DNA of 64,000 bases from an uncultured Bacteroidota bacterium (GCA_963782125.1 CAWAID010000008.1:114795-178794), one strand, 5' to 3'; numbered from the stretch's first letter, positions 2,743 to 40,645 are shown. Notes: a model not told the origin generated them from the letters alone. Numbers and translations are program-made.

Positions 2743-3669
2743 TCATCCCACCAGGTCAATGTCAAAATTGACAAGCTCCACGAACTCGTCCATCCGGCCG
2801 TCAATTTCCTTCTTCGTTAGTTCCTGCAGGCGGCCCGGACCAAATTTTTCTACACAGAAAGACGCCATGGCAGAGCCTACGATGATGGCCGTCTTCATGT
2901 TTTCAAAGGAAATGTCTTTTGTATGCGCCAGGTGGCCGATGAAGCCGCCGGCAAACGTGTCGCCGGCCCCGGTAGGGTCAAAAACCTCTTCCAGCGGCAG
3001 CGCTGGCGCAAAGAAGACATGCTTGCCATGAAAGAGCAGCGCACCGTGCTCACCTTTCTTAATGATGAGGTATTTAGGGCCCATTTCCTGAATTTTCAAA
3101 GCAGCCTTCGGCAAAGAATATTCGCCGCTTAACTGGCGCGCCTCGGCATCATTCACCAGCAGCACGTCCGTCATGGAAATGGCCTGCTTCAGGTCGTCCA
3201 TTGCCGTCTCCATCCAGAAGTTCATGGTGTCCATTACAATCAGCTTTGGGCGCTTGCGCAATTGCTTAATTACACTCATCTGGATGGCTGGCACCAGATT
3301 GCCCAGCATCAGAAACTCGCAGTCCTGATAGCTTTCAGGTATCTGCGGGTTGAATTGCGCGAGCACGTTTAGGTCAGTTACCAGCGTGTCGCGCGTGTTC
3401 ATGTCCATGTGGTAGCGGCCGCTCCAGAAAAAGCTCTTGCCGTCCGGCACCAGCTCCACGCCGTCAAAGACGACGCCACGCGCGGCGAGCCTGTCTATCT
3501 CCGCCCGCGGAAAGTCGCCGCCGATGATGGACACCTGCTTAATAGGCTTATAGAAGTTAGAGGCCGACCAAGCCACATAAGTTGCTGAGCCACCGATGAT
3601 GCGGTCCACTTTGCCGAAGGGCGTTTCCAGGGCGTCAAAGGCCATGGTGCCGATTACTACGAGAGACAT
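2743..3669 (-). CDS. PfkB-family carbohydrate kinase (ribokinase-like)
   Basis: C-terminal DPTGAGDTFAGGF motif and an N-terminal GG dipeptide region characteristic of pfkB kinases. Confidence 0.85.
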   Translation of the reverse strand: MSLVVIGTMAFDALETPFGKVDRIIGGSATYVAWSASNFYKPIKQVSIIGGDFPRAEIDRLAARGVVFDGVELVPDGKSFFWSGRYHMDMNTRDTLVTDLNVLAQFNPQIPESYQDCEFLMLGNLVPAIQMSVIKQLRKRPKLIVMDTMNFWMETAMDDLKQAISMTDVLLVNDAEARQLSGEYSLPKAALKIQEMGPKYLIIKKGEHGALLFHGKHVFFAPALPLEEVFDPTGAGDTFAGGFIGHLAHTKDISFENMKTAIIVGSAMASFCVEKFGPGRLQELTKKEIDGRMDEFVELVNFDIDLVG

Positions 3670-3677
3670 GTTTTATT

Positions 3678-3717
3678 GGAACGTTGGAGTGTTGGAATGT
3701 TTGAGTGTTGGAGGGTT
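3678..3717. repeat. Degenerate tandem heptamer tract (GTTGGAG / TGTTGGAA / TGTTTGAG)
   Basis: Visible tandem units; related tracts at 2177-2206 and 4654-4677, all intergenic. Confidence 0.5.
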
Positions 3718-3753
3718 CGCGAAGGTCAGGGGGTTTGTACTACTCGCTCAAAC

Positions 3754-3826
3754 TTTGTCATTCCCGCAGGGAATCTTATCTCGCAGCTTTTGTGAGATTC
3801 CCTTGCGGGAATGACAAAGTCGCTGT
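3754..3826. repeat. ~70-bp palindromic intergenic repeat (copy 2)
   Basis: Same arms and terminus as 2227-2297 with a slightly different loop. Confidence 0.7.
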
Positions 3827-3851
3827 GGCAGCTTGTTATTCCTAGAAGTCA

Positions 3852-4631
3852 TTACCTCCCGCTAAATACCGGCTTCCGCTTTTCCAGAAACGCCGTCACA
3901 CCCTCGCGGAAATCCGCACTTGCGCCGGCCTCTGCCTGCACTTCCTTTTCCGCTTCAAGCTGGGCTTCCAGCGTATTGGAGAAGGATTGATTGATGAGCC
4001 GCTTGGTCAATCCAAAAGCCTTTGTTGCGCCCTGCGCCAGCCCTTCGGCAACCGTCTGCCACGCATGCGGGAAGGCCTCATCGTCATACACGCGGTACAC
4101 CATGCCCATCTGGGCCGCTTCGTCGGCAGTAATCTTATCGCCCGTGAGCGTGAGGGCAAGGGCGCGCTGCGTGCCTACCAAGCGGGGCAGGAAAAAGGTG
4201 CCGCCGCTGTCCGGGATCAGAGCGATTTTGGAGAATGCCTGGATAAACGTGGCGGTCTTAGCCGCCAGCACAATGTCTGCCGCCAGCGCAATGTTGGCGC
4301 CCGCGCCAGCTGCTACGCCATTTACCGCGGCAATAATTGGCTTCTTCATGCGCCGCATGCGCAGGATGGTGGCATTGTAATGCTCGTCAACCATCTTGCG
4401 GAAGTCCAGATTGTCCACGTCGGTGGCCTCACAAAGGTCCTGGCCGGCACAAAAGCCTTTACCCGCGCCCGTGATGACAATGCAGCGCACTGCATCATCC
4501 TCCGCGCAGGCATCAAGCGCACTTTGCAGCGCAAGGGCCATCTCGCGGTTAAAGGAATTGTACTTCTCCGGCCGGTTCAGGGAAAGGACGCGAACGCCGC
4601 CGATGTCGTTGACAAGGATGGTGGTAGACAT
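3852..4631 (-). CDS. Enoyl-CoA hydratase/isomerase (crotonase family)
   Basis: NRPEKYNSF...ITGAGKGFCAGQDL crotonase signature. Start placed at MSTTILV. Confidence 0.85.
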   Translation of the reverse strand: MSTTILVNDIGGVRVLSLNRPEKYNSFNREMALALQSALDACAEDDAVRCIVITGAGKGFCAGQDLCEATDVDNLDFRKMVDEHYNATILRMRRMKKPIIAAVNGVAAGAGANIALAADIVLAAKTATFIQAFSKIALIPDSGGTFFLPRLVGTQRALALTLTGDKITADEAAQMGMVYRVYDDEAFPHAWQTVAEGLAQGATKAFGLTKRLINQSFSNTLEAQLEAEKEVQAEAGASADFREGVTAFLEKRKPVFSGR

Positions 4632-4703
4632 AAGCGCGAAGGTCGGTGAATCTTTGGAGCGTTGGAATATTGGAGTGTACCTGAACATTCAAACATTCAA
4701 ACG

Positions 4704-5159
4704 CTACAACGTTACAACATCAATAGCGGTCAGCTCCCGCTCCCATTCGCCGGTATGCTGTATGCGGATGCGGATGCGGGGAATGCCTTGCAACAGCTCG
4801 GGCGCTTGCTCCGGCCATTCTATGAAACAGATAGCCCCGGAATCGCGCAGTGCGGCTTCCATTCCGGCATCAACTGCTTCGTCAGCGCTGCGGAGGCGGT
4901 ACCAATCCATATGAAGGATCTTGCGCTCACCGTCTTCTTCCCGGAACCGGTATTCATTAATCAGGGCAAAGGTGGGAGAAGAGACGGGGTCCGTTACGCC
5001 AAGCGTATCGCATAAGGCGTGGATAAAAGTGGTCTTGCTGGCGCCAAGGGAGCCGCTGAAGGTGAACACCCGGCTGCCGGCTGCCCAGGCCCAAAGCTGC
5101 TGTGCGGCATTGCCAACCTCATTCAATGTATAGGCTATACGGAGCGGTGAGCGGTCCAT
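4704..5159 (-). CDS. tsaE: tRNA threonylcarbamoyladenosine biosynthesis protein TsaE (copy 1)
   Basis: P-loop GSLGASKTTF with YHMDWYRL and ICFIEWPE motifs; ~150 aa. Confidence 0.85.
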   Translation of the reverse strand: MDRSPLRIAYTLNEVGNAAQQLWAWAAGSRVFTFSGSLGASKTTFIHALCDTLGVTDPVSSPTFALINEYRFREEDGERKILHMDWYRLRSADEAVDAGMEAALRDSGAICFIEWPEQAPELLQGIPRIRIRIQHTGEWERELTAIDVVTL

Positions 5160-5228
5160 ACCGCGAAGGTATCGAGCGGCGCCGAGGCCGGAACGCTATC
5201 TTCGTCCGGGCCATCCCATTAAATTACT

Positions 5229-6944
5229 TTGTACCAGGAGCAAAGCCCCGATTCCAAGTTCCGTCGCCCGGCGTGGCGATACCTGAATCTGTTACCAGTA
5301 TTGGCGTGCGTTGGCGTTATTGGCGGTGCAGCGGCTTATTATTTAGCCACTTATGCACAGCTATGCGCCTGGTATCTCCGGCTTTATCCCTGCATTTATA
5401 AGGCCGGAGACTGGCAGCGGGAATATTTCACCCCACTTGTCAAGGCTGAGGGCAATACTCATGCAGTCATTGGCGTCTTTATAGCCGCCGCCTCGGCGGC
5501 TTACTTCATCCGCCGGATAATTCGGACCCCACCACCTCGCATGGCAAGGGCGCTAAGGCTGGGCCGGCAGGATGTGGTTGCGCTGTTACTGTTGTATGCC
5601 TTCGGCTTAGCTATCTGGCTATGGGGGGTGCGGAGCTATCCAAGCTACGACGAAGTGTTTTCGGTGATGGACTGCGCCCGGCTGCACCCGTTGCAGACGG
5701 TGTCCTACTACATGCGGCCAAACAACCACCTGCTCTTTAACCTGCTCAATGCTGCACCTGCCCATCTTTTCAGGGACGGCGTGCTTAGCGGGCGCATCAT
5801 CTCCGGATTGGCCAGCGCGGTATTACCGGGCTTGGTCTATCTCTATTTGCGTCGGCTGACCGGTTCCCGGGCCATTGCGGCAATGGCTTGCGTGGTGCTG
5901 ATGCTCCAGTTTGTGGTATGGGCATTCTCGGTGCAGGCGCGCGGTTACGCGCTGCTGCTGGCGGCCTGCTGGGGCGCTTTCATCTTTTTAGAAGATTATC
6001 TCCGGCATGATGACCGGCGCTCGCTGCTCCTGCACGGCCTCTGCATCGTCGTGGGCTGTTGGGCAGTGCCTTCTTTTCTGTTTTGGGAAGTAGCGTTGAT
6101 AGGTTATGCCGCGCTGCATTTTATCCGTGAGCGACGCATCCGCTGGTCTTTGGTGCAAATGCACCTGCTGGCCGCTGCGATGGTGTATGTAGCATACCTC
6201 CCGGCGCTGCTGTTCACCGGGCGGCACTGGCTGAGCGATAATGGCTATGTAGCCCCTTTTACCGGCCCGATGCCGATTTTCCTGCTGGATGCCTGGCATC
6301 AGTGGCGGGGCCTGTTTCAATACGCCTACTCCTACTTTCCTACCGAGCAGAGCAATACGGATTTGCTGCTCGCCTTCCTGCCGGTGGCCGTTTATCCCTT
6401 CGTCTGGCGCAGGAAAGGAAGTGGTCTGTTGCTTTTTTATTGTCTTGCATGGGGCGCCTTCTGGCTTATAGAGCTGCGCATGAAGCACTTGCCGCCGTAC
6501 CGGAATCTGATTGCGCAGCAAAGCCTGTCGCTGGCGGCGGTGGTGATGGCGGTCTGGATGCTGTTGAGCACTGTGTTTAAGAAGATCGTCTTACTGCGCA
6601 AAGGCGTGATGGCAGTTTCATGCGCGGCGCTAAGCATCTGCTTCATCCGCTACAACCGTGATAATCTGGATACGGCTATGTATGGCTATAGCCTGCGGGG
6701 TGCCTGGAATAGCTCAGCCGGTCTGATTGAGCGGCTGCCCCCCGGGACAAGACTGGCTACATCTGCCGAAAGCTTTTATCCCCGTTATGTGTGTTTGCTG
6801 CGCGGTATTCCGGCTTCGGATTGTATGGGTGATGAGGCTTCCATGTATCTGAAACGCAATGATGATGCGTTGCCGACGGAGTATGGCCAACTCGTGAAAG
6901 TGGATAGTAATGACGACTATGAGTTGTACCACATTCAGAAATAG
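5229..6944 (+). CDS. Polytopic membrane protein, GT-C-like (ArnT/PMT family) glycosyltransferase candidate; start uncertain
   Basis: More than 10 predicted TM helices; overall organisation resembles 4-amino-arabinose/mannosyl transferases. Confidence 0.45.
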   Translation: MYQEQSPDSKFRRPAWRYLNLLPVLACVGVIGGAAAYYLATYAQLCAWYLRLYPCIYKAGDWQREYFTPLVKAEGNTHAVIGVFIAAASAAYFIRRIIRTPPPRMARALRLGRQDVVALLLLYAFGLAIWLWGVRSYPSYDEVFSVMDCARLHPLQTVSYYMRPNNHLLFNLLNAAPAHLFRDGVLSGRIISGLASAVLPGLVYLYLRRLTGSRAIAAMACVVLMLQFVVWAFSVQARGYALLLAACWGAFIFLEDYLRHDDRRSLLLHGLCIVVGCWAVPSFLFWEVALIGYAALHFIRERRIRWSLVQMHLLAAAMVYVAYLPALLFTGRHWLSDNGYVAPFTGPMPIFLLDAWHQWRGLFQYAYSYFPTEQSNTDLLLAFLPVAVYPFVWRRKGSGLLLFYCLAWGAFWLIELRMKHLPPYRNLIAQQSLSLAAVVMAVWMLLSTVFKKIVLLRKGVMAVSCAALSICFIRYNRDNLDTAMYGYSLRGAWNSSAGLIERLPPGTRLATSAESFYPRYVCLLRGIPASDCMGDEASMYLKRNDDALPTEYGQLVKVDSNDDYELYHIQK

Positions 6945-7148
6945 CCTGTGTGTATAATATTGATAATATTCAGTTTGCTTAATATGGCTAACAATGGTAG
7001 AAATTTTTAGTATTTTGTTACCAATTTAATATTGCTTTGTATAAAAAAAACTGTTACGAGGAAAGACGGACTGAATGATAAATTTTATGTGGCTAATCTT
7101 CTCTCTATTTAAATACGGGTGTAAAATGAGATTAATAAAAATATAGCT

Positions 7149-7628
7149 TTGCCTCTTACTGCTTGGATCCTGCAAAAAGGTGGCACGCCTAATCAACATC
7201 CATTTGTAACCGGCGAATACTTCCATTGTAAAGTAGATGGTGTTGACTGGTATGCTTCAAAAGATGATGACCCTTTCGCAACGGCGGTTTCCGGCCAGTT
7301 AGAAGGAGATACAATCCTTTTTGTGGCAGCCTATCAGGGGACAGAAAGTATGGGTCTGTTGATGTATAAGAGCAACGGAATTGTTGGTAATATCTCTCAT
7401 GAATTATCAACAAATGGCAAAGGCTCAAATGCCAATTATGATAATGATCTTTCTATAAATCGTTTTGAAACTGATTCGGTACATAAAGGGGCAGTCGTGC
7501 TTACCCTTCTTAACCGAAGTAAAATGCTTGCGGAAGGTAATTTTTCATTCACAGCATATCATCCGGCAAAGCATAAAACCGTCAATATCACCGAAGGTAC
7601 TTTCAGCATCTATTACCAGCCTCACTAA
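7149..7628 (+). CDS. Hypothetical protein in an AT-rich segment (start uncertain)
   Basis: ORF preceded by an AT-rich region 6950-7150 containing a TAnnTTTG-like -7 box. No recognisable domain. Confidence 0.3.
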   Translation: MPLTAWILQKGGTPNQHPFVTGEYFHCKVDGVDWYASKDDDPFATAVSGQLEGDTILFVAAYQGTESMGLLMYKSNGIVGNISHELSTNGKGSNANYDNDLSINRFETDSVHKGAVVLTLLNRSKMLAEGNFSFTAYHPAKHKTVNITEGTFSIYYQPH

Positions 7629-7824
7629 GGTCCTGGCCGGCGCAAAAGCCTTTGCCTGCGCCTGTTATCACGATGCAGCGCACCGCATCATCCCCGGCGC
7701 AGGCGTCCAGCGCGCTTTGCAGCGCAAGGGCCATCTCGCGATTAAAGGAATTGTACTTCTCCGGCCGGTTGAGCGAGAGGATACGGACGCCGCCGATGTC
7801 GTTGACAAGGATGGTGGTGGACAT
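7603..7824 (-). pseudogene. Truncated enoyl-CoA hydratase paralogue (N-terminal 66 aa only)
   Basis: ~87% nt identity to 4434-4631. Homology ends after GFCAGQDL and the frame runs into unrelated sequence. Confidence 0.65.
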
Positions 7825-7846
7825 GGGCGCGAAGGTAGGTGGAGCA

Positions 7847-7875
7847 GTTTGTCAACTTTTGGAAAGTTGACAAAC
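7847..7875. promoter_or_regulatory. Perfect 10-bp-arm palindrome gtttgtcaac-N9-gttgacaaac between tsaE copy 2 and the hydratase remnant
   Basis: Visible inverted repeat; could be a terminator hairpin or an operator. Confidence 0.4.
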
Positions 7876-7883
7876 TTAGCCGC

Positions 7884-8333
7884 TCACATCACCTCCTGCG
7901 CGGTAAGCTCCCGCTCCCACTCACCCGTATGCTGTATGCTGATGCGGACGTGCGGGATGCCATTCAGCAGCTCCGGCGCTTTTTCCGGCCATTCTATGAA
8001 GCAGATAGCGTCCGTGTTATTCAGCACGTCTTCCATCCCCGCATCCACGGCCTCATCGGCGTTGCGCAGGCGGTACCAGTCCATGTGATAGATGGTACGC
8101 TCGCCGCCGGCCTCCCCGAAGCGGTATTCATTGATCAGCGCAAAAGTGGGAGAAGACACGGCGTCTGTCACGCCCAGCATTTCGCAAAGGGCGTGGATGA
8201 AGGTGGTCTTGCCGGCTCCGAGGGAGCCGCTGAAGGTGAAGACCCGCGCATCCGCCGCCCAGCGCCATAGCTGCGCGGAGGCGGCAGTAACGTCGGTAAG
8301 ACTGTAAGTAATGCGGAAGGGTGGGCGCTGCAT
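7884..8333 (-). CDS. tsaE: tRNA threonylcarbamoyladenosine biosynthesis protein TsaE (copy 2, diverged paralogue)
   Basis: GSLGAGKTTF P-loop; ~75% aa identity to copy 1. Confidence 0.8.
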   Translation of the reverse strand: MQRPPFRITYSLTDVTAASAQLWRWAADARVFTFSGSLGAGKTTFIHALCEMLGVTDAVSSPTFALINEYRFGEAGGERTIYHMDWYRLRNADEAVDAGMEDVLNNTDAICFIEWPEKAPELLNGIPHVRISIQHTGEWERELTAQEVM

Positions 8334-8435
8334 GGCGCGAAGGTATCGGGAGGAGGATATATGCGGCGATGCAAAAAGAACGGCCGGCCCTTTGGAGGCT
8401 GGCCGTTATACTGTTTTTAAAAGCTGCTACCGGCG

Positions 8436-9338
8436 CTATTGCAATATAATACTGCGATAGGCCACCTCACCATCGGCTGCAATGCAGACCTTGTATACGC
8501 CGGGCGGCAAGCTGCTCATATCCAGCGCAGTATGAAACGCTGTGCCCTGCGGCCCATAGCTGCGGCGCAGTACCTCCGCTCCGTTAGCGGCATAAATAGC
8601 CACGTTTAGCTCTTTTACAGCCTGCCCAGTACCGAGTGATATATTGATCAGCCCTTTTGCAGGATTGGGCGACAGGTCTGCCTGTATAATGCTTAACGTA
8701 CCTACTCCTGTTTTAGCAGCGAGGTCTATGCCGAGGTCAAGAAAAGGTCCAATGGTGGCACTTCCTTTACTGCGCAGAGAATCCCGATGGCCACTAAGTG
8801 TCCGAGGCTTCGTGCCGGTAACTGGTAAATTGGTAGCCATCAAATCAAAGCCAGTATTGTTAGGCTTTGGCCCCATGGCCACTTCTACTACCATAATTTT
8901 ATTTGGATCATAATAGAAGGGTACGTCAACAGGAATCTTAATCCACTTACCAACTGTATCACTGCCTTGCACAGTAAAAGTTGCATTCAGAATCGTGGTC
9001 AGACCGGTTTTAAAGGTATCATATACTGTGCTGGAAAGATTCCAGAAACTATCAGTCGTATAGCCGATCTTGACACTCAGGTTATTGTATACAGCGGGTG
9101 CAGTGTATCCGTAAGTACGCCCCACTCGTAAGTATATGGCGGAAACATTCCCTCCGGATATACCCGGAAAGTTAGAAGAATAGTAGATCGACTGATATTT
9201 AACTTGGATCGTTGTAAATCCAGCAGATGTTGCCGCCCCTGTTCCAGAATATTTTGTGCACATGTATTGTGGGGTCTGTGCGAAGACTGGATTTAACAGG
9301 GATAAAATAACGAAACTTATTGCAATGAAACGTTTCAT
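8436..9338 (-). CDS. T9SS-secreted protein with C-terminal sorting domain
   Basis: Signal peptide MKRFIAISFVILSLLNPVFAQ; C-terminus ...GVYKVCIAADGEVAYRSIILQ typical of a Por/T9SS CTD. Confidence 0.7.
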   Translation of the reverse strand: MKRFIAISFVILSLLNPVFAQTPQYMCTKYSGTGAATSAGFTTIQVKYQSIYYSSNFPGISGGNVSAIYLRVGRTYGYTAPAVYNNLSVKIGYTTDSFWNLSSTVYDTFKTGLTTILNATFTVQGSDTVGKWIKIPVDVPFYYDPNKIMVVEVAMGPKPNNTGFDLMATNLPVTGTKPRTLSGHRDSLRSKGSATIGPFLDLGIDLAAKTGVGTLSIIQADLSPNPAKGLINISLGTGQAVKELNVAIYAANGAEVLRRSYGPQGTAFHTALDMSSLPPGVYKVCIAADGEVAYRSIILQ

Positions 9339-9360
9339 AAAATCGTCTATGGGTTAAAGT

Positions 9361-10389
9361 CTATTGTTTAGAAAACTTGGTTCTGTATTCAGCGTTGTTA
9401 GCTTCCTTAATGCTCAGCATATAAGTACCCGCTGCCAATTCCTGCATACTTAGAAAGCCGTCGGCTGGCAGCGCGCCGCGCAAGATTAGCTTGCCGCTCA
9501 TATCACGGACAATGTAGGAGGCATTTACGCTGTTACCATTTATCTGTAGGTTATCACCGGCTACCTGCGCACTGATGTTGCCTTTCGTGCCGCCTTTCGT
9601 GATATTTCCCTTTGTAGGCGGGAAAGCCATTGTATTAGGCTGGCTGTATTTACATACTACGTCCGCTCCGTTATACCAGGCAGCCATAATATCGTCACCG
9701 CTGTTGCTGCAATTGGTGACTGCCATGTTTTTATTCAGGTCCCAATGGTAGCCTACCGTATCCGTATTCACCTCATACCACGATGAGGGACTAATTAAGT
9801 TACCGAAAACGGCATCCACATCACGTGCATATAGTGATGTTGTTGACCAAGGATACATACCTACTGTATATTGACCATTACCAATATGCGCAGCGGGTGC
9901 AGACTGCACGGTAATGCCTACCGCGACGCATGGACTCATTACATAGTCGGTAGTAGCTGGAAACTGCGGAGCGCTCAGATTAGAGCCGCCGGTTACATTG
10001 TTAAAGCCCCATACCTGCTCGTGATTAGTAGTGCCTTTGTCTTTAACTACAGCTATTTCATACTTTACATGCAGTGGCATAGTCTCATTATCATAGCGGC
10101 CAATCGCTTCTATCCGCGGATAGTAAAACTGTCCGGCTTGCAGTAAAGTATTAGTCAGAGCCGTGCTTGACAATACATCCCACTCCATATACATCAGACC
10201 ACCCGTAGTGGTCACTGCACCGCTCCCCGCGCCACCTGCAAGACTGGTTGCCGATGCGTAAGCTATCTGCGCGCGATAATTGCCACTTGCGAAATCCATT
10301 TGACCAGCTATATCCGGCATGAACGCATCAGTGCCCATAGGAGTTGGAAGCGAACCGGGGGTATTAACATCCGCAAAGTAACCCATCAA
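9361..10389 (-). CDS. T9SS cargo protein, C-terminal portion with CTD (likely continuous with 10431-11219 through a frameshift)
   Basis: C-terminal GTYMLSIKEANNAEYRTKFSKQ T9SS CTD; no signal peptide at its own N-terminus. Confidence 0.55.
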   Translation of the reverse strand: MMGYFADVNTPGSLPTPMGTDAFMPDIAGQMDFASGNYRAQIAYASATSLAGGAGSGAVTTTGGLMYMEWDVLSSTALTNTLLQAGQFYYPRIEAIGRYDNETMPLHVKYEIAVVKDKGTTNHEQVWGFNNVTGGSNLSAPQFPATTDYVMSPCVAVGITVQSAPAAHIGNGQYTVGMYPWSTTSLYARDVDAVFGNLISPSSWYEVNTDTVGYHWDLNKNMAVTNCSNSGDDIMAAWYNGADVVCKYSQPNTMAFPPTKGNITKGGTKGNISAQVAGDNLQINGNSVNASYIVRDMSGKLILRGALPADGFLSMQELAAGTYMLSIKEANNAEYRTKFSKQ

Positions 10390-10430
10390 ATTAGCAGTAC
10401 CATTTTCAGCCCATACTATGCCGAACTTTT

Positions 10431-11219
10431 CTACAGCTGCACAACTGGCACATCCGGACGGTATGCTGTTAATGTTGAGAACATATCTATGTGAGGGAAG
10501 CCGTCACAGGTAGTGCTCAGTATTGTAGAGAAAGATGGTGTGGTCGGTATATTAAACGTAGAAAGGCCAACATCCTGCAGATCGTAAATATCAAGAATGG
10601 CTCGTTGCCCTACGCAATAGACGATGAGCGCTTGATAGGGGTTGGAAATTCCTGCGCCATTATTATAAGAGAGTACTATATCGGGCTGAATGCCATTTGT
10701 TTGAAGAGGGATTGTAACGCTGGTTCCGTTAAAGTCTTCAACAAAGAAGCCTCCAAACTTGCTAGTGCTTGATTGTGAGCTCCAGGCCACAGCTTTAATC
10801 ACACCACTCCCGCCGCTTGCATCTTTCAACATGTCGGCATTTATCACCACGTCGTGCGCTACGGTGCTGGTAAAAGAGGCAATTACTGTTTCCGGAAACA
10901 TGCCCGTGATAGGCACAATAGTAGCGACGGCGCGTTGGATGCTGGCGATGAACAATGACATTGTCGCGAAGGCTATCAGCGTGAAAGGGAAAGCCTTAAG
11001 CTTGGCTTTTCCGCACGGGTAGCCCGGTGGTGCCAGGCGCGTTACTGTTACTGATGTGCCTGCCGCGGGGGGGGCAGGTGCTGCGTGCCGCGCAGCAAGG
11101 GGTTGGGTAGATGCTTGCTTCATAAACCTGGCAATAAATAGTTTGTAACTCAAATCTAATCCCTTTGAACAGGTAAAATCAACTTTGATTTTCGTTGATG
11201 CAGCTAAGCGGCGGTCCAA
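10431..11219 (-). CDS. N-terminal portion of the secreted T9SS cargo protein (signal-peptide-like hydrophobic segment); start uncertain
   Basis: Hydrophobic segment AFPFTLIAFATMSLFIASI; contains a C8 homopolymer near the 5' end. Confidence 0.45.
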   Translation of the reverse strand: MDRRLAASTKIKVDFTCSKGLDLSYKLFIARFMKQASTQPLAARHAAPAPPAAGTSVTVTRLAPPGYPCGKAKLKAFPFTLIAFATMSLFIASIQRAVATIVPITGMFPETVIASFTSTVAHDVVINADMLKDASGGSGVIKAVAWSSQSSTSKFGGFFVEDFNGTSVTIPLQTNGIQPDIVLSYNNGAGISNPYQALIVYCVGQRAILDIYDLQDVGLSTFNIPTTPSFSTILSTTCDGFPHIDMFSTLTAYRPDVPVVQL

Positions 11220-11242
11220 AAATCCGTTCAGCTAACAGTTCA

Positions 11243-11320
11243 CAGCGACTTTTGTCATCCCGGAATGGGAACTTGCGCTAACCGACTGGATATATACTGT
11301 AATAAGTTCCCGTTCCGGAG
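11243..11320. repeat. Palindromic intergenic repeat related to the 2227/3754 family
   Basis: Shares the cagcgacttttgtcat terminus; hairpin ccggaatgggaactt / aagttcccgttccgg. Confidence 0.5.
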
Positions 11321-11610
11321 CCTGCCCTGAAATCGTTTCAGAAACGACAAAAGATTGGTAAGAGCACGGAAATGGACATTTAGACACCCTCTAAGCATCA
11401 ATATGGCACAATGCTGGTCTGGCACATAGCATTCCCGCTTCAGCAGCCATCCGCCATTTAATGATATAAAACGCTATCCAAGGGAAGGAAGCTGTCCCTG
11501 TACTGAAAAAGGTTTACAGTATGGTTAGAGCATACTTAGGGCATAGTTTAAGCATAGGAACAGCGTATATACTCCCACCTTAAAGGCTGGCACAGGCAGG
11601 TTCGGGCCCA

Positions 11611-12938: not shown

Positions 12939-13724
12939 GTGCCCGAGCTTCGTACCGTTCAAGTCACCCGATATGTCACGCCCCTGCGCGAGGGCGGCTC
13001 GCTGCCCGCTATCGCGGAAGCAGATGATGGTTTTCTGTATGTACTCAAATTCCGTGGCGCGGGACAAGGCACCAAGGCACTCATTGCCGACCTGCTGGGC
13101 GCGGAGCTGGCTCGCGCACTTGGGCTGAAGGTGCCAGAGACCGTCTTTGCCGAGTTGAATGAGGCCTTTGGCCGCACCGAGCCTGATGAGGAAATCCAGG
13201 ACCTGCTCAAGGCATCCACCGGCCTCAACCTAGGGCTGCATTACCTGCAAGGCGCCATCACCTACGACCCGAATGTAACGAAGGTGGATGCCGCGCTTGC
13301 CTCCAGAATCGTGTGGCTGGACTGCCTGATTATGAACGTGGACCGCACCTTCCGCAATACCAATATGCTGATGTGGAAGGGCGAGCTATGGCTTATAGAC
13401 CACGGCGCTTCCTTCTACTTTCATAATGACTGGACGGGCTGGGAGGGTAGGGCAGAAAAGCCATTCGCGCTGGTCAAAGACCATGTGCTGTTGCCGCAAG
13501 CAGCCGAGCTTGATGCCGCAGACGCGGAATGCCGGGCCTTGCTCAGCGATGAAGTGGTTGACGCCATTGTCGCCCTCATTCCGGAAAGCTGGATCGTGCC
13601 TGACCCGCTGTTTGCGGATGCCGCTGGGCAGCGGGCAGCTTATGGCACTTTCCTGAAAGCGCGGATCGCACATTCTTCCACCTTCTTAAACGCCGCGAAA
13701 GATGCCCGACAAGCACTTGTATGA
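12939..13724 (+). CDS. HipA-like kinase-fold protein
   Basis: LIMNVDRTFRNTNML...LIDHGASF resembles the HipA_C catalytic loop and DFG-like region. Overlaps the next gene. Confidence 0.55.
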   Translation: MPELRTVQVTRYVTPLREGGSLPAIAEADDGFLYVLKFRGAGQGTKALIADLLGAELARALGLKVPETVFAELNEAFGRTEPDEEIQDLLKASTGLNLGLHYLQGAITYDPNVTKVDAALASRIVWLDCLIMNVDRTFRNTNMLMWKGELWLIDHGASFYFHNDWTGWEGRAEKPFALVKDHVLLPQAAELDAADAECRALLSDEVVDAIVALIPESWIVPDPLFADAAGQRAAYGTFLKARIAHSSTFLNAAKDARQALV

Positions 13725-14085
13725 GTACGCGGTCATCCGCGTGGTGCCGCGTGTGGAGCGGGAAGAGTTTGTCAATGCCGGCGTCATGCTCTATTGCCCG
13801 AAGCAGCGCTTTCTGCGCAGCCGCTGGGTAATGGATGAGGCACGTATCACTGCCCTTTGCGGCGAAGCATGCCTTGCTAAGATAGCCGATGCCCTCCAAT
13901 CCATGCAGCGCATCGCCGAAGGCGGGAAAGGCTGCGGCCCGGTTGGGCTTATGGACATGCCCAGCCGCTTCCGCTGGCTGACTGCCTGGCGCAGCACGGT
14001 GGTGCAGACCAGCCGCGTGCATTCCGGCTTTTGCGATGATGCGGCGCAGCAACTGGAGCGCCTATTTGAAGCGCTGGTGGCATAA
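13702..14085 (+). CDS. DUF3037 family protein
   Basis: N-terminal YEYAVIRVVPRVEREEFVNAGVMLYC matches the DUF3037 signature. Confidence 0.7.
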   Translation: MPDKHLYEYAVIRVVPRVEREEFVNAGVMLYCPKQRFLRSRWVMDEARITALCGEACLAKIADALQSMQRIAEGGKGCGPVGLMDMPSRFRWLTAWRSTVVQTSRVHSGFCDDAAQQLERLFEALVA

Positions 14086-25898: not shown

Positions 25899-26036
25899 CT
25901 GACGAGAATGTTGAACTCTTTGCTATTATTGATTGGTGAGGATGCCTATCGCCAATTTTAGAAAATTTCAGGAAAATATCTTACCTCATTTCTATATTTT
26001 TCCGTTATTTGCCTTTTTATTGCAAAATCGCAAAAA

Positions 26037-27316
26037 ATGGTTCTTGAATTCTCGATGGGTAATTTCCGGTCGTTCAATCAAATCCAGAAGCTGGATTTTA
26101 CTGCGACTAAACTCGTATCCGAGGACAAGGAAGTTGATGCTAGGAATATTGTCGAAGAATTGGGAACTAGAGTCCTAAAGACTATTGCTATTTATGGCCC
26201 AAACGGAAGTGGAAAATCAAATCTAATAAAGGGATTCTCGACTTTTAGAGACTTAGTTGATCGTTCGTTAGAATCGGAAGCAATAATGACTTTTGCGGCT
26301 GATCCATTCCGACTTTGTAGCGCCGAACCAGACAATGCCGGTTTTTACCAAATTCTTTTGTTGATTGAGACAAAAAAATACCGCTATGGATTTACGCTAA
26401 CGCCGAGTGGCTCGTACAGCAAGAGTGGTTATTTGGTCCAGCTGAAAAAAATGAGACATGGTATTTCAAGCGTAATGGACAAGATGTAAGATCTAATGAG
26501 GAATGGTTTACCGAAGGGGTTAACTTGCCCATTTCCAAATTGCGTGATAATACTCTGTTTATAACCTTTGTATCGGCGTATGACGGTACTATCTCCAGTT
26601 CAATCAGAAGTTTTTTAGCTAACAAAATCACAATTGAACAAGTTGATTTCTTTAGAAGTTCATTGGATAGGAAGAAGAAGAGGTTGTCATATAATCCAAA
26701 TAAGGTCACTAATGACCTTTATCGCTCACTAGGAAAAGAGGTCGTCTTAAAGTGGCTGGGGTATGGGGGACTGACATATAGTGGAGTTAGTATAGATGAT
26801 AGTTCAGAAGATGAAGAACGGGTACTTTTAGAGAAAAATATTTATGATAAGGAGGGGCGCATAAATGGTAAAACGCTGATGTCCCTTAGAGAGAATGAGT
26901 CCGCAGGAACTAACAAATTCTATTCATACATAGGATGGATATACAAAAAATTTGAGGAGGGCGGGCTGTTCATTTCAGATGAAATAGATAATAATTTTCA
27001 TCCTTCGCTTTTAAGACGACTGATAAATTTCTTTAACGATAAAGAGATTAATACTGCAAACGCGCAACTTCTTTTTACTAGCCATGACACAACATTGATG
27101 CAGCCCAATACCCTTCGACGTGATCAGATCTATTTCACGGAAAAATCTTCGAAGGAAGAATCGGTTCTTTATTCACTTTCGGATTTGAAAGGAATAAGAA
27201 ACAATGCCGATTTTGCGCGTCAGTATTTAGCCGGGTTTTACGGAGCAATCCCCATTTTAGAGGGGTATAGAGAGATGAGCAATCCTGATCTTGAATTCAA
27301 ATCTAAGCCAGAATAA
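26037..27316 (+). pseudogene. AAA_21-type ATPase (AbiLi/RloA-like abortive-infection ATPase), frameshifted near 26400
   Basis: Walker A GPNGSGKSN. Frame 0 is good through YRYGFTL and frame 2 from EWLVQQEWLF onward. Walker B LFISDEIDNNFH sits in the second part. Confidence 0.7.
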
Positions 27317-27318
27317 AT

Positions 27319-28062
27319 ATGCAGGACGCTTGGGATTTGCAGCCTCCGGTTGTACGCGAAGTGGATGAAACTGAAACCTTTATTTTGTTTGGAGAGGACG
27401 AGGTAAATGAACCGTCATATTTTCTTGATCTGCAAGTAGAAAAAAAAGTAAAAATTAATTTCGTCGAAGACCAAAAAAGCGGTTTCCAGAATTATGTAAA
27501 TGCGGTTGCCTACTGCTTGAACAATGGCCTCATGGAAACGGTTAACAACGTCACCGCCTTAAAGGCGGGGATTACCCAACATATTTGGTGTGTTTATGAC
27601 AGAGATTGTGAAGAGGAAAATTTTCAGAACATTCCGGCTGCGAAAAATCACACATTTGATTTAGCAATCCAATCTGGGCTGGCATCAGGTTTGAAAGTTG
27701 CATGGAGCAATGACGTATTTGAACTTTGGATTTTACTACATTTTGAAGATGTAACTCCAGGAGTCTGGCGACATAGAACGTATGTCTATGACCGTTTGAC
27801 CCAGATTTTTCGTGATTTGCCCAATCAGACAGAAGAAATGGCCCAAGAAACTTCTAAGCCACGCTTTAATTACAAAGGCTGGATGAAGCGCAAGAAGAAT
27901 TTTATTCTCTTTGTGCGGCCATTACTTAAAGAAAGACGGGCAGATGCTATCCAGAGAGCCAATCAGTTAGAAGCAGCCTTTCCTGCCAATGCTGATTTTC
28001 ACAAGCGTAATCCATGTACGCAAATTCATCATTTGGTTCAGAGTATAATGTCTTTCTACTAA
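27319..28062 (+). CDS. RloB-like (AbiLii-like) protein
   Basis: N-terminal TFILFGEDEVNEPSYFLDL resembles the RloB motif ilvcEGekTEpnYF; follows the AAA_21 ATPase directly. Confidence 0.55.
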   Translation: MQDAWDLQPPVVREVDETETFILFGEDEVNEPSYFLDLQVEKKVKINFVEDQKSGFQNYVNAVAYCLNNGLMETVNNVTALKAGITQHIWCVYDRDCEEENFQNIPAAKNHTFDLAIQSGLASGLKVAWSNDVFELWILLHFEDVTPGVWRHRTYVYDRLTQIFRDLPNQTEEMAQETSKPRFNYKGWMKRKKNFILFVRPLLKERRADAIQRANQLEAAFPANADFHKRNPCTQIHHLVQSIMSFY

Positions 28063-33378: not shown

Positions 33379-34404
33379 ATGTCTGTAAACAAACTAGCCC
33401 TGATCCGCTACAAGACCATTGACGACTGTTTGACCAACCGCCGTCGTAAGTGGACGCTTGAGGATCTCATTGAAAAAGTATCCGCCGCACTCTATGAGAC
33501 CGAAGGCATTGCCAGAGGCGTGAGCCGCCGTACTGTGCAGGCAGACATCCAGCTGATGCGCTCCGACAAGCTTGGCTACAAGGCCCCAATCATCATTAGA
33601 GACAAGAAGTACTACTGCTACGAAGAAGCGGACTACAGCATCACCAAGGCTCCGATCAATAGTGCCGATGTGGAGAAGATGAGAGACATAGTAGGCGTCC
33701 TGAAGCAGTTCAATGGCTTCTCCTATTTTGATGACATGAGCGAGATGATCGCCCGCCTGGAAAACAATCTTTACAAGTCTACCAATCAAAGCCGCAATTA
33801 CATTCAGCTGGAAGGCAATCACCTGCTGAAGGGACTGGAGCATATCACACCATTGTACCAGGCCATTCTCCACCAACGGCCGCTACTCATCGAGTACAAA
33901 TCGTTCAAGGCTCAGAAATCGGGGCAGGGTATCTACTATCCTTATCTGCTAAAGGAGCACCGCAACCGCTGGTTTCTTATAGCGAGGCCTAAGAAGGGCA
34001 AGACGCTAATGACGTTGGCGCTGGACAGGATGATCGAGTTTCAGGAGCTCACCAAAGAGCCTTTTGTACCGCATCAAGGCGTTGACTTCGACCGCTATTT
34101 CAGCGAAACGATTGGCGTAACAAAGAACGAAACCGACAGGGCGCACAGGGTGATCCTCCACATAAGTAAAGATCATGCGCCCTATGTGCTTACTAAACCG
34201 CTGCATCAGTCGCAGACGCTATTAAAGGAAGACGAGCTGGGTGTTATCATTAGGATAGATGTCGTGCTGAATTTTGAGTTGGAGCGGGAGATACTTGGGT
34301 TCGGGGAATGTGTTAAAGTGCTTGCCCCGCGCTTGCTTGCTTCGCGAATCAAAAAGAGGTTTGAAAAAAGTATTGCGCGTTACCAGGAAGCGGGAGTGAA
34401 ATAA
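33379..34404 (+). CDS. BrxR/CapW-like wHTH-WYL transcriptional regulator
   Basis: N-terminal RRKWTLEDLIEKV...VSRRTVQADIQLMR wHTH and central NRWFLIAR WYL-type motif; ~340 aa. Confidence 0.6.
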   Translation: MSVNKLALIRYKTIDDCLTNRRRKWTLEDLIEKVSAALYETEGIARGVSRRTVQADIQLMRSDKLGYKAPIIIRDKKYYCYEEADYSITKAPINSADVEKMRDIVGVLKQFNGFSYFDDMSEMIARLENNLYKSTNQSRNYIQLEGNHLLKGLEHITPLYQAILHQRPLLIEYKSFKAQKSGQGIYYPYLLKEHRNRWFLIARPKKGKTLMTLALDRMIEFQELTKEPFVPHQGVDFDRYFSETIGVTKNETDRAHRVILHISKDHAPYVLTKPLHQSQTLLKEDELGVIIRIDVVLNFELEREILGFGECVKVLAPRLLASRIKKRFEKSIARYQEAGVK

Positions 34405-34577
34405 CCTAACTGCTGCTGGAATACATGCATGGTTGAATCATTATTACGCAACTAAGGCAAGAGCGGTATGCTGGCACAAGGCACTTATTATCTGCTTTAA
34501 AAAGTGAGTACTAAGCCGAATATTGGTTTTACAAGCTTAGACAGACATTTGGATAACTTTACGTAAAAACATTTAAT

Positions 34578-34895
34578 ATGGAGTTTAATGCGTACCAGGA
34601 AAAAGCGAAACAGACCATTCAAAAAAATGTTTCAGAAGATAAATTATCGGGAATTGTTCCCTTTTTAGGCATCATTGGGGAGATCGGCTCGGTAGTAACC
34701 CAACTAAAAATTAAGTTTAGGGATGGAGATTCATATGTTGCATTCAAGGAAAAGCTCAGTGAAGAATTAGGCGATGTTCTTTGGTATGTTTCGACAATAG
34801 CTACTCAAAATGAATTGCTGCTTGAAGATATTGCCGGCCAGAACCTGCTCAAAATCCACGATCGCTTTCTAGTTGACGATGTTTCTAGAGTATAG
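34578..34895 (+). CDS. MazG-like all-alpha NTP pyrophosphohydrolase domain protein
   Basis: EELGDVLWYVSTIA matches the MazG EExGD motif. Confidence 0.6.
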   Translation: MEFNAYQEKAKQTIQKNVSEDKLSGIVPFLGIIGEIGSVVTQLKIKFRDGDSYVAFKEKLSEELGDVLWYVSTIATQNELLLEDIAGQNLLKIHDRFLVDDVSRV

Positions 34896-35463
34896 AGATT
34901 TTGATGAATCTCACCCAAGAGCATCAAGGTTTCCGGAAGAATTTGAGATAGAGTTTGTGAGCTATGAAGAAGAAGGCAAAAACAAGATTAAAATCGTCGA
35001 TAAGCGAAATAATCAATTAATCGGAGACCCCTTGACAGACAATACATATGAGGATGATGGCTATCGGTTTCACGATATTTTTCATTACGGATACTTGGCA
35101 GTCCTTGGGTGGTCGCCGGTTCTTCGTAAACTATTGAAGATAAAAAGAAAGAGCAATGCTAAGATAGACGAAAATGAGGATGGGGCTAGATCACAGATAA
35201 CTGAAGAGTTGATTTCACTCTACATTTATCATCATGCAGTTGATCACGATTTGTTGAAGTATAGCACGAGTGTAGATTCCGGAATAATTAAAAAGGTCCA
35301 GAGTCTCGCGAAGAACACCGAGGTGAATAAATGCAGCGGTAAACAATGGGAGAAAGCGATTCTAAGTTCTTATGGGATTTTTAACCAGCTTAGGGAAAAC
35401 AACGGTGGAAGAGTGCTAGTTAGCAAGAAGAATAGATCCCTTCTTTATTTAGGAAAGAAATGA
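34873..35463 (+). CDS. Hypothetical protein (overlaps the MazG-like ORF; possibly its frameshifted C-terminal extension)
   Basis: ORF overlaps the previous gene by 23 nt in the +1 frame; no known domain. Confidence 0.35.
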   Translation: MTMFLEYRDFDESHPRASRFPEEFEIEFVSYEEEGKNKIKIVDKRNNQLIGDPLTDNTYEDDGYRFHDIFHYGYLAVLGWSPVLRKLLKIKRKSNAKIDENEDGARSQITEELISLYIYHHAVDHDLLKYSTSVDSGIIKKVQSLAKNTEVNKCSGKQWEKAILSSYGIFNQLRENNGGRVLVSKKNRSLLYLGKK

Positions 35464-35650
35464 GCTCTTGGATACTTATCTGTCTTCGAGATTAAGTCCT
35501 ATTAGTCTCAATAAGACAATGGCTTCCACAGATTAGAAACATACAATCTTGAAGGGACTATAGGGATTCGGACAGCTAACAGATAACAAAGGATGTATTC
35601 CTTTTGACACAGAAATAAAATCAATCGATCGCAGAGATTACATCGGCAGA

Positions 35651-36679: not shown

Positions 36680-37136
36680 TCATAATGGTCTTGACGACGC
36701 ACATGTCCAATCATTAAAAGACCGGTTGAGGAACCAAGGGTTCAATGTGCGTAATTTCTCGGTTGACAGTACTAACCACAAAGATGGACGGCGACCTTCT
36801 GATGAAGTTATTCGTAGACTTTTGAGTATGAGAGTCAAATGGTCTAGTACGCTCATTTGCTTAATCGGTCCGGAAACGCACAAAAGCGGTTGGGTAAATT
36901 ATGAAATCAGAAAAGCATACTTAGAGGGGAAGCCAATTGTTGGGATTTATACACATGGAAGTAAGAATTCCGTTGAACTACCAGAAGCATTTAAGAAGTA
37001 CGGACAATCGCTCATTGGATGGAATTCTGTAGAGAAACTCGGCGAGATTGTCATTGGGAAAAATGTTCCTAATGAGAATCCCGACGGAACAATGGCAAAA
37101 CCAATACATAAACTAAAGCGAGTTACTACCTGCTAG
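36651..37136 (+). CDS. thsB: TIR-like (DUF1863) ThsB-like protein 1
   Basis: IFISHNGLDDAHVQSL...SGWVNYEI pattern of the TIR-like DUF1863 domain. Confidence 0.6.
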   Translation: MQKASNIFISHNGLDDAHVQSLKDRLRNQGFNVRNFSVDSTNHKDGRRPSDEVIRRLLSMRVKWSSTLICLIGPETHKSGWVNYEIRKAYLEGKPIVGIYTHGSKNSVELPEAFKKYGQSLIGWNSVEKLGEIVIGKNVPNENPDGTMAKPIHKLKRVTTC

Positions 37137-37137
37137 T

Positions 37138-37773: not shown

Positions 37774-37813
37774 CCGCAGGCAATCATCGCCTATATAGAG
37801 AAATCCCCTACTA

Positions 37814-40562: not shown

Positions 40563-40645
40563 GCAATAGCAGCTGAACGCGTATATTCTCAGAAGAACAG
40601 TTAGACTCTTCAAGTAGCAATCTAAATCCTATAAGGAACAATCCT

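Follow-up and report, generated by a model that had tools for sequence, protein, structure and literature searches.

Additive recombination with a related lineage as a probable origin of two divergent tsaE genes in a Bacteroidota genome

In the stretch of DNA analyzed here (the window, 64 kb of an uncultured Bacteroidota bacterium, on a contig from a metagenome assembly), two intact and diverged tsaE genes lie in direct repeats on either side of a membrane protein gene and a pseudogene. We put at roughly 0.6 the probability that this locus arose by additive homeologous recombination with a related lineage and not by duplication in place. The gene tsaE is a housekeeping t6A gene, normally single-copy (PMC4615747), a point already made in the initial annotation and borne out by the other tsaE loci examined, 85/85 of which have one tsaE.

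Results

Repeats and single junction

The two repeats have the same orientation and start 3,174-3,193 nt apart, and neither a third copy of the repeat nor a second copy or remnant of the GT-C gene between them was detected in the window. The main features are as follows.

3852-4631, minus strand: full-length enoyl-CoA hydratase/isomerase (ECH, PaaG-like), 259 aa; Pfam ECH_1, E=1.7e-63
4426-5174, minus strand: repeat copy 1, with tsaE1, a repeat-rich spacer and ECH codons 1-68
4704-5159, minus strand: tsaE1, 151 aa, the putative incoming (xenologous) copy; PF02367 108.8 bits, TIGR00150 90.4 bits
5229-6944, plus strand: GT-C-fold membrane protein, 571 aa, the main cargo (AF2 and Foldseek)
7126-7628, plus strand: AT-rich DUF6252 lipoprotein pseudogene; PF19765, E=1.2e-8
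7603-7824, minus strand: ECH' remnant ORF, 73 aa, with 66/69 aa identical to ECH
7618-7620, no strand: single illegitimate junction, between ECH codon 68 and the DUF6252 3' end
7619-8349, minus strand: repeat copy 2, with tsaE2, a hairpin spacer and truncated ECH' (codons 1-68)
7884-8333, minus strand: tsaE2, 149 aa, the putative native copy; PF02367 118.1 bits, TIGR00150 102.8 bits

Over the whole repeat, gaps included, the copies are 77% identical (blastn), the similarity being higher in the ECH part (89% at the nucleotide level, 66/69 aa or 96%) than in the tsaE part (79%; 111/149 aa or 74%). These values agree with the initial estimates of about 80-87% for nucleotides and 75% for TsaE, and the repeat borders fall within about 15 nt of the segments first proposed (4434-5160 and 7626-8335); likewise, the second copy had been correctly described as a short piece of the hydratase, then counted as 66 codons, next to a complete tsaE. 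In alignments of copy 2 with copy 1, L001 (the nearest relative) and L086, ECH homology breaks sharply at 7618/7619. This is the one non-homologous junction of the locus and it cuts ECH and DUF6252 alike, the last two codons and the stop of the DUF6252 pseudogene being ECH-derived sequence.

No tRNA, integrase, transposase or Rfam element was found nearby, the closest tRNA being 25.6 kb away. Insertion of a mobile element (IS, transposon or integrative element) was rejected, given that the insert is devoid of transposase and integrase domains and that no inverted repeats flank it, and so was a short target-site duplication, the repeat being 0.73 kb long with copies only 77-89% identical.

Gene order in the relatives is M28->tsaE->ECH->PfkB->87aa, with no insert, in L001 and L083, and tsaE->ECH was also seen in L084 and L086; each relative carries one tsaE, and the hydratase-tsaE pair is uninterrupted. 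In L002, ECH does not adjoin tsaE. A genome with the order GT-C<->tsaE->ECH, with or without DUF6252 before it, was not found.

Two intact tsaE genes

Both tsaE reading frames are intact, and both products score above the family cut-offs (26.6 bits for PF02367 and 60.1 bits for TIGR00150), with TsaE 9zw5 as the best PDB match (E=2.4e-27). The near-invariant motifs SPTF, H-x-D-W-Y-R and E-W are all retained in the two proteins. The Walker A motif of TsaE2, GSLGAGKTT, follows the canonical pattern G-x-x-G-x-G-K-T-T, whereas that of TsaE1, GSLGASKTT, is non-canonical (G41S): the residue before the lysine is glycine in 118 of 120 homologues, one further sequence lies outside the pattern, and the serine was seen in TsaE1 alone. 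TsaE1 departs at only one of the 30 columns that are at least 99% conserved, and D102A, at a 99%-conserved site, comes in addition. The dN/dS of tsaE1 against relatives is 0.13-0.21, and both copies lie at 0.13-0.2.

The two proteins are not sisters. TsaE2 grouped with L001 in 200/200 neighbor-joining bootstraps (100%) and TsaE1 with TsaE2 in 0/200, which answers the phylogenetic check proposed at the outset. TsaE2 is 86.6% identical to the TsaE of L001, and TsaE1 has no close relative, its best match reaching only 73%.

Cargo of the insert

The designation of the 571-aa protein as GT-C-like was right at the level of the fold. No match was found in Pfam, in NCBIfam or among PDB sequences, even with a 30-member profile; the AF2 model (pLDDT 92.6, pTM 0.91) confirms a predicted GT-C fold, in that about the first 37 PDB hits in Foldseek are all GT-C enzymes, with ArnT, Emb and STT3/PglB at the top (ArnT 5f15, E=1e-6; TM 0.4-0.5 across the GT-C hits). 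A D141-E142 pair, which may correspond to the catalytic acidic motif of the first external loop in GT-C enzymes, is invariant across the family members. The family is rare and patchy (35 homologues), as would be expected for accessory cargo. The homologue in L002 is 71% identical and also adjoins tsaE; the gene is oriented divergently from tsaE1, as in L002, and the GT-C<->tsaE module and part of its intergenic region are common to the window and L002. The second gene of the insert, initially listed as an AT-rich hypothetical gene, is present on the plus strand and is here identified as a DUF6252 lipoprotein pseudogene, with an in-frame TAG in the signal peptide and a 1-nt frameshift in an A-run.

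Divergence of the ECH remnant

The 259-aa form of ECH is a 100% match to a database protein (P0121). Between the two copies, codons 1-66 have dN 0.013, dS 0.554 and omega 0.024, with 3 of the 23 changed codons non-synonymous. For the orthologues of the window and L001, dS is 0.57 in ECH and 0.77 in PfkB. Since the dS of the stub is as large as that between orthologues and omega is 0.024, the two ECH sequences diverged under purifying selection, before the truncation.

A haplotype switch inside a 32-nt block

The repeats share their longest run of perfect identity at the start of ECH, and three further features are defined by it.

4594-4625, minus strand: putative crossover block in copy 1 (ACCACCATCCTTGTCAACGACATCGGCGGCGT on the minus strand; ECH codons ~3-13), 32 nt, the longest perfect identity between copies 1 and 2
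7787-7818, minus strand: putative crossover block in copy 2, the same 32 nt as 4594-4625
4626-7786, no strand: putative integrated foreign segment, which with one 32-nt block makes a 3,193-bp unit; L001 and L083 are without it

The spacing from block to block is likewise 3,193 (7787-4594). Copy 2 matches L001 at 91.9% of 664 nt, and its perfect run to L001 (83 nt, 7869-7787) ends in the 32-nt block; that of copy 1 (89 nt, 4625-4537) starts in the same block, so that the L001-like haplotype follows copy 2 and then passes to copy 1 within it. Between tsaE codon 26 and position 7819, sites at which copy 2 agrees with L001 outnumber those at which copy 1 does by 92:10, in contrast to 0:7 between 7786 and 7730 (Fisher p=6.5e-7). 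An unbiased max-chi-square search placed the breakpoint between 7819 and 7786 (permutation p=0.00015, or 0.003 once a six-site cluster is counted as one event), with L001 as the one reference genome and with seven informative sites past the switch, six of them within 16 nt; an independent breakpoint test with L086 as reference gave p=0.43. A composite of copy 2 upstream and copy 1 downstream matches L001 at 505/526 positions (96.0%), as against 79.1% for the reciprocal composite. We infer that a single homologous crossover left this switch as its trace.

Discussion

The preferred reading starts from a native order of M28 peptidase, two T9SS-tailed proteins with a hypothetical protein, tsaE2, ECH and PfkB. 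A segment of about 3.19 kb from a related Chitinophagaceae lineage, with the putative order DUF6252 <- GT-C <-> tsaE -> ECH, would first have been circularized, or turned into a linear molecule of equivalent ends-in form, by an illegitimate joint between its two extremities, ECH codon 68 and the 3' end of DUF6252, and would then have undergone one homologous crossover with the native ECH inside the 32-nt block. The integrated unit of about 3,193 bp would comprise ECH codons 13-68, DUF6252, GT-C and tsaE1, and the outcome would be Campbell-style, with homeologous direct repeats around the cargo, each a reciprocal chimera. Copy 2 would thus carry the native tsaE2, its spacer and ECH codons 1-~12, continued by foreign codons 13-68 in the ECH' remnant, and copy 1 the foreign tsaE1, its spacer and ECH codons 1-~2, followed by native ECH from codon ~13, so that full-length ECH is probably itself a chimera. 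As a consequence, ECH would have been rebuilt intact behind a foreign tsaE1, and the native tsaE2 would be followed by a dead ECH stub, in a genome with two intact tsaE genes. The intermediate, circular or ends-in, and the DNA's mode of entry into the cell are our reconstruction, as is the donor order, suggested by GT-C<->tsaE in L002 and by the clade-wide tsaE->ECH.

The same features might have been acquired in the opposite direction. Here tsaE1 and GT-C would be native, in an L002-like arrangement (M28-> <-GT-C <-> tsaE1 -> ECH), and homology-facilitated illegitimate recombination would have placed, between M28 and GT-C, a piece of an L001-like relative's DNA comprising the T9SS genes, tsaE2 and ECH codons 1-68. 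Distance arguments, made before the breakpoint was found, pointed to this direction and against the integration model: tsaE1 is equidistant from L001 (dN 0.19; dS 0.82, the background level) and L002 (dN 0.21), which fits the roughly equal background of the flanking genes, tsaE2 is anomalously near L001 (dS 0.155, with 54/55 identical positions in the adjoining spacer), far nearer than any flanking gene, and the window minus 6945-11610 would match the gene order of L002. To accommodate the closeness of tsaE2, the integration model requires that an earlier recombination tract of about 0.5 kb be common to the window and the L001 lineage. The reverse capture, in turn, leaves unexplained why the 89-nt identity of copy 1 to L001 starts where that of copy 2 stops, in the longest shared block; moreover, the M28 3' end has no L001-like anchor tract (dS 0.51) and M28 shows no switch in similarity to L002. 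We consider this direction unlikely, while giving it more weight than either of the explanations that follow.

An ancient tandem duplication of tsaE-ECH in place, followed by long divergence, partial loss and, at a later stage, allelic recombination with a lineage resembling L001, would make the position beside the orthologous locus natural, and the joint between ECH codon 68 and the DUF6252 3' end has the topology expected of a tandem unit [DUF6252-GT-C-tsaE-ECH1-68]. The stub speaks against it: a truncated copy decaying neutrally is expected to show dN/dS near 0.5-1 against its parent, and 0.024 at a dS of 0.55 is incompatible with such decay since a truncating duplication. In addition, the TsaE copies are never sisters, five relatives, and 85 loci in total, are single-copy and would require several independent losses, and the GT-C gene has left no second copy or remnant. 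We regard this origin as highly improbable, and the same stub and bootstrap results contradict the earlier proposal of an old insertion that duplicated its flanks; the other option then raised, a homologous segment captured from a relative, is supported, in the refined form of captured insert and tsaE1, native tsaE2 and a crossover in the 32-nt block. Equally improbable in our judgment is an assembly artefact, in which the contig would join at 7618/7619 two related co-occurring genomes with a single tsaE-ECH each. It would trivially account for both the pair of intact tsaE genes and a 'freshly' cut ECH (omega~0); contig names of the relatives are of low-coverage style (2x-7x), related species do share a sample (ERZ26165376 is the source of L002 as well as L083) and a search of JGI metagenomes did not recover the 7618/7619 junction. 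An artefact does not, however, predict L001-like tracts that are complementary and switch at a 32-nt block, and as the join lies outside homologous sequence, a chimeric read linking two genomes within about 3 kb of orthologous positions would be needed. Furthermore, ECH codons 13-68 differ by 12-15% between copies 1 and 2, and there is therefore no collapsed or duplicated strain bubble.

Integration by a single crossover has a familiar counterpart in Campbell-type ('ends-in') integration, in which non-replicating circular DNA with a homologous segment, for instance a suicide plasmid, enters the chromosome, as also in early additive transformation of Bacillus subtilis. Shared features are the direct repeats around the cargo, reciprocal chimeras at one crossover point, an insert-free allele (here in L001 and L083), and repeats able to recombine and pop the insert out; with the putative donor order, the integrated DNA would also be a circular permutation of it. 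In contrast, the 'vector' would here be ordinary DNA from the chromosome of a related species, devoid of replication and mobility genes, the circular intermediate is deduced, and the homology is only homeologous (77-89%), so that the crossover would have used a 32-nt identity island.

Homology-facilitated illegitimate recombination (de Vries & Wackernagel 2002; Prudhomme et al. 2002; Meier & Wackernagel 2003), in the outline given by the summaries in PMC5361080 and PMC3240628, also adds the DNA of a relative via one homologous interaction and one illegitimate joint, and remnants orphaned or displaced beside a new module, as the ECH stub would be here, are proposed in the part of PMC5361080 concerning Vibrio T6SS effector-immunity arrays. 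With a linear fragment, however, recipient DNA between the joints is replaced or deleted and the two repeats are not reciprocal chimeras, whereas here the illegitimate joint would link donor end to donor end instead of donor to recipient; a linear event of this kind was rejected, as it does not predict that both repeats are chimeric at the same point. In the transformation-triggered merodiploidy of Streptococcus pneumoniae (Johnston et al. 2013, PMC3784515), exogenous DNA partly repeated in the chromosome likewise leads to doubling of an essential gene, with one copy freed from constraint; there, 100-900 kb of the cell's own DNA is involved, with identical IS repeats at the borders and unequal interchromatid crossover (PMC3784515), while here 3.2 kb of foreign DNA would have been added.

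Xenologous displacement or acquisition of essential housekeeping genes is a general concept, and a normally single-copy tsaE beside the xenologue of a relative, with TsaE1 substituted at near-invariant sites, fits it. No displacement has yet taken place here, both copies being intact with dN/dS of 0.13-0.2.

The mechanism of gene gain is of a known kind, an ordinary though unusually well-resolved recombination between relatives, and the locus leaves the current understanding of recombination and of t6A biology unchanged. A broader claim seems to us very doubtful: that ordinary chromosomal DNA of a sister species, free of mobility genes, can be added to, and not swapped into, a Bacteroidota genome by circularization and a single crossover in an identity island of about 30 nt, leaving two diverged copies of an essential t6A gene, and that the foreign TsaE1 (G41S) might be kept as a functionally distinct partner of TsaB/TsaD and not as an outgoing redundant copy. 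The locus offers a natural example in which the mechanism of gene gain (crossover point, single illegitimate joint and native copy) may be read from sequence. What looks like a 'segmental duplication' in a bacterial genome can be a homeologous capture, and the distinction can be made from the dN/dS of a truncated remnant combined with breakpoint mapping against a relative. Two intact tsaE genes are also a rare finding, and this pair, in which one member has a P-loop substitution, could help to probe how much variation the t6A ATPase tolerates.

Structure of the repeat and its insert

The window carries a direct repeat whose copies, 4426-5174 (copy 1) and 7619-8349 (copy 2), are separated by 3,174-3,193 nt from start to start, with every gene of the repeat on the minus strand. 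Each copy consists of an intact tsaE, a spacer of 60-70 nt and the 5' end of a gene encoding an enoyl-CoA hydratase/isomerase (ECH). The genes of the region are:

3852-4631, minus: ECH, full length only after copy 1, 259 aa
4704-5159, minus: tsaE1 (copy 1), intact, 151 aa
5229-6944: gene of the insert, encoding a GT-C-fold membrane protein
7126-7628, plus: DUF6252 lipoprotein pseudogene of the insert
7884-8333, minus: tsaE2 (copy 2), intact, 149 aa

After copy 2 the hydratase is a stub, ECH', that ends at codon 68. The copies share 89% nucleotide identity in the ECH part (66/69 aa) and 79% in the tsaE part (111/149 aa, 74%), and both TsaE1 and TsaE2 score above the Pfam and NCBIfam TsaE cut-offs. 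The initial annotation had described a diverged duplication of about 0.7 kb with two tsaE genes, the second followed by a hydratase 5' remnant, and these coordinates, identities and passed cut-offs therefore bear out both its description and its numbers.

The membrane protein of the insert (571 aa) had been called GT-C-like from the sequence, a guess with which its AlphaFold model (pLDDT 92.6) agrees, as the top ~37 PDB fold matches are all GT-C glycosyltransferases; sequence-family searches gave no match, and the putative GT-C assignment comes from the fold search alone. Members of the family are few: a search of 5.8 billion proteins gave 35 homologues. The only close homologue (71% aa) is found at L002, the tsaE locus of a relative, and the next family member, the database protein P0243 (51% identity), lies in an unrelated gene context and is consequently uninformative on the gene order of a donor. 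The DUF6252 pseudogene has a TAG stop in frame within its signal peptide, MRLIKI*LCLLLLGSC, and between this peptide and the domain the reading frame is shifted by 1 nt in an A-run (A5). At the junction its 3' end gives way to ECH-derived sequence, which supplies the last two codons and the stop.

Gene order in relatives

The window lineage is an uncultured member of the Chitinophagaceae near Flavipsychrobacter. As the initial annotation had suggested, related genomes were searched for an uninterrupted hydratase-tsaE pair, and tsaE -> ECH is unbroken at four of the loci below.

Table. Gene order at tsaE loci of relatives
L001, nearest relative: M28 peptidase -> tsaE -> ECH -> (LPD3) -> PfkB -> 87aa
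L083, close relative: M28 peptidase -> tsaE -> ECH -> PfkB -> 87aa
L084, relative: tsaE -> ECH
L086, relative: T9SS-tailed protein -> tsaE -> ECH
L002, relative: M28 -> <- GT-C <-> tsaE, without ECH downstream

In addition, many other TsaE and ECH matches come from contigs of equal length. The pair tsaE -> ECH is thus the conserved core; upstream of tsaE the content varies across the clade, with M28, GT-C or T9SS proteins in that position. A single tsaE was present within +/-10 kb at 85/85 other tsaE loci fetched. A contig profile search with the TsaE alignment returned, among the matches listed, distant relatives only (at most 58% identity) without synteny, which were used for the single-copy census only.

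In the window, the interval between the M28 peptidase and tsaE2 (8350-11610) holds two T9SS-tailed proteins (8436-9338 and 9361-10389) and a hypothetical ORF (10431-11219); the M28-tsaE interval is only 35 nt in L001 and 17 nt in L083. The window lacks the LPD3-domain gene that separates ECH from PfkB in L001 (1696-2064) and the M16 peptidase that in L002 lies between M28 and HipA_2 (3610-6543). A toxin-antitoxin-like HipA_2/DUF3037 pair (12941-14082) adjoins the M28 peptidase and is syntenic in L002.

Divergence of the two copies

In a neighbor-joining tree of 45 TsaE proteins, 200/200 bootstraps paired TsaE2 with the TsaE of L001. TsaE1 was never paired with TsaE2 and forms its own branch within that small clade. 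Over ECH codons 1-66 the copies differ with a dN of 0.013 and a dS of 0.554 (dN/dS 0.024), only 3 among 23 changed codons being non-synonymous. This dS is as large as that of orthologues between species, which for the window and L001 amounts to 0.57 in ECH, 0.77 in PfkB and 0.90 in the gene of the 667aa protein. A fragment cut short at a duplication is expected to evolve neutrally afterwards, and because a dN/dS of 0.024 is seen instead, ECH' was probably not truncated by a duplication in place; its divergence appears to have accumulated almost wholly under purifying selection, in a working gene of another genome. Since dN/dS between the tsaE copies is 0.13-0.16, both have been functional genes.

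A mosaic with a breakpoint at the start of ECH

Both copies were compared site by site with L001.

Table. Nucleotide identity to L001
tsaE codons 1-25: copy 2, 55%; copy 1, 55%
tsaE codons 26-78: copy 2, 93%; copy 1, 84%
tsaE codons 79-end: copy 2, 96%; copy 1, 75%
tsaE-ECH spacer: copy 2, 98% (54/55); copy 1, 60%

As background, identity between these genomes is only 17-60% in other intergenic regions and stays within ~92% in every 100-nt coding window. The first 25 codons of tsaE (5085-5159 and 8260-8333) are hypervariable, with 55-60% nucleotide identity in all three pairings of copy 1, copy 2 and L001 and a dN of 0.4-0.7 among close relatives, the remainder of the gene being conserved.

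The pattern flips at the start of ECH: from 7786 to 7730 the informative sites at which copy 1 or copy 2 agrees with L001 number 7:0, against 10:92 upstream (Fisher p = 6.5e-7). A maximum chi-square scan, run without presupposing a breakpoint, locates the switch between 7819 and 7786 (permutation p 0.00015, or p = 0.003 when six clustered sites count as one event). L001 is the one informative reference for this position and the sites downstream are few; L083 and L084 are too distant, and an independent breakpoint test with L086 gave p = 0.43. The interval from 7819 to 7786 is a 32-nt block (7787-7818 in copy 2, 4594-4625 in copy 1), identical in both copies and L001, which is the longest perfect identity between the copies. 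Copy 2 is identical to L001 over a run of 83 nt that terminates in it, and an 89-nt run, the longest perfect match between copy 1 and L001 in the 1.4-kb alignment, starts in it. Joining copy 2 upstream to copy 1 downstream gives a composite that matches L001 at 96.0% over 526 nt, while the reciprocal composite reaches 79.1%. The complementary switch and the composite identities thus point to a haplotype that is contiguous in L001 and split by the insert in the window, and the split point is the site where homologous recombination between the homeologous copies is most feasible.

Proposed origin and alternatives

Judged from the sequence, the simplest account would be a Campbell-type (equivalently, "ends-in") single-crossover integration. 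A donor segment of the order DUF6252 <- GT-C <-> tsaE -> ECH(1-68) would have had its ends joined illegitimately at one non-homologous joint (7618/7619), and the resulting 3,193-bp unit would then have recombined with the resident ECH inside the 32-nt block. Such a single event would yield the direct repeats, a lone illegitimate junction and a circularly permuted foreign gene order, and would also explain the stub with omega ~ 0 (codons 13-68 being donor ECH), the reciprocal chimerism of the repeats and the existence of insert-free relatives. The native part would then be tsaE2 and PfkB together with ECH from codon ~13 onward; the foreign part would be the two genes of the insert (GT-C and the DUF6252 pseudogene), tsaE1 and ECH' codons 13-68. 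That the composite is nearly identical to L001 would reflect a separate, earlier recombination tract of ~0.5 kb common to both lineages, with the window lineage or its insert-free strains as partner of the L001 lineage. The initial annotation had left open whether an old insertion duplicated its flanks or a segment was captured from a relative; the mosaic and the breakpoint favor capture, and the TsaE tree and the dN/dS of ECH' speak against flank duplication in place.

The opposite direction, in which tsaE2 was imported from an L001-like donor by homology-facilitated illegitimate recombination between M28 and GT-C, was our initial reading. The distances of tsaE1 do match those of the flanks (dN 0.19 to L001 and 0.21 to L002; dS to L001 0.82), and tsaE2 is anomalously near L001 (dS 0.155), but the complementary switch between the copies is left unexplained, and a homologous anchor tract sought in M28 was not found. 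We consider this direction unlikely, and because of the breakpoint analysis prefer tsaE1 as the foreign copy. An ancient duplication is far less probable still, given that the TsaE copies never pair, that ECH' has so low a dN/dS and that several independent losses would be needed. We attach a similarly slight probability to an assembly chimera at 7618/7619: contigs of the relatives resemble metagenome assemblies from long reads at low coverage, and related species are present together in one sample, but the joint lies outside homologous sequence, two genomes would need linking within ~3 kb of orthologous positions, and the crossover footprint would not arise. The junction 24-mer had no match in JGI metagenomes, and the donor genome was not found among the relatives examined.

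The preferred single-crossover event would work like the Campbell-type integration of a non-replicating circle, except that here the circle, as well as the route of DNA entry into the cell, is one that we infer. Related processes are homology-facilitated illegitimate recombination (PMC5361080, PMC3240628) and transformation-triggered merodiploidy (PMC3784515). The outcome of the event would be a xenologous second copy of a housekeeping gene that is normally single-copy (TsaE distribution, PMC4615747). Events of this kind are already known, and the locus is a further example, well resolved and not surprising.

GC content was rejected as a marker of foreign DNA, as the window itself spans 39 to 60% GC; large stretches of 39-42% GC at 26000-28000 and 34000-42000, in a window otherwise of 50-60%, may represent islands, or gene clusters of a different composition.

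TsaE1 substitutions and small sequence elements

TsaE1 carries a G41S substitution in Walker A, at the Gly before the P-loop Lys (G in 118/120 homologues, one more being off-pattern), as well as D102A, in a position conserved as D to 99%; TsaE2 is canonical at both positions. Two deviations at columns conserved to at least 97% place TsaE1 in the top ~3% of sequences, which hints at a relaxed constraint on the putatively foreign protein. The signal is mild, and for that reason was rejected as evidence that both copies share one genome.

Rfam, tRNA and promoter/terminator scans returned nothing relevant. A box, [C/G][G/A]ATACCTTCGCG, ends 3 nt before the ATG of tsaE1, tsaE2, ECH and ECH' (minus strand; 5162-5171, 8336-8345, 4635-4644 and 7828-7837), occurs also at 3718-3727, and is kept in L001, L002 and L086. 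The window contains 10 matches, where 3.5 would be expected. The box is similar to TAnnTTTG, the -7 promoter element of Bacteroidota, and its placement suggests that the transcripts may be leaderless. The tsaE1-ECH spacer (4632-4703) consists of short repeats of the GGAATG/CCAAC type; a related copy lies in inverted orientation downstream of ECH (3676-3709), and L086 has a similar spacer (909-990). The tsaE2-ECH' spacer instead contains a perfect 13-bp hairpin (7846-7876) identical in L001. Intergenic REP-like hairpins, ACTTTGTCATTCCCGCAGGG / CCTTGCGGGAATGACAAAGT, are found in the window at 3752-3820 and 2227-2296 and in L002 at 10976-11014, with 33/33 nt identical between the window and L002.
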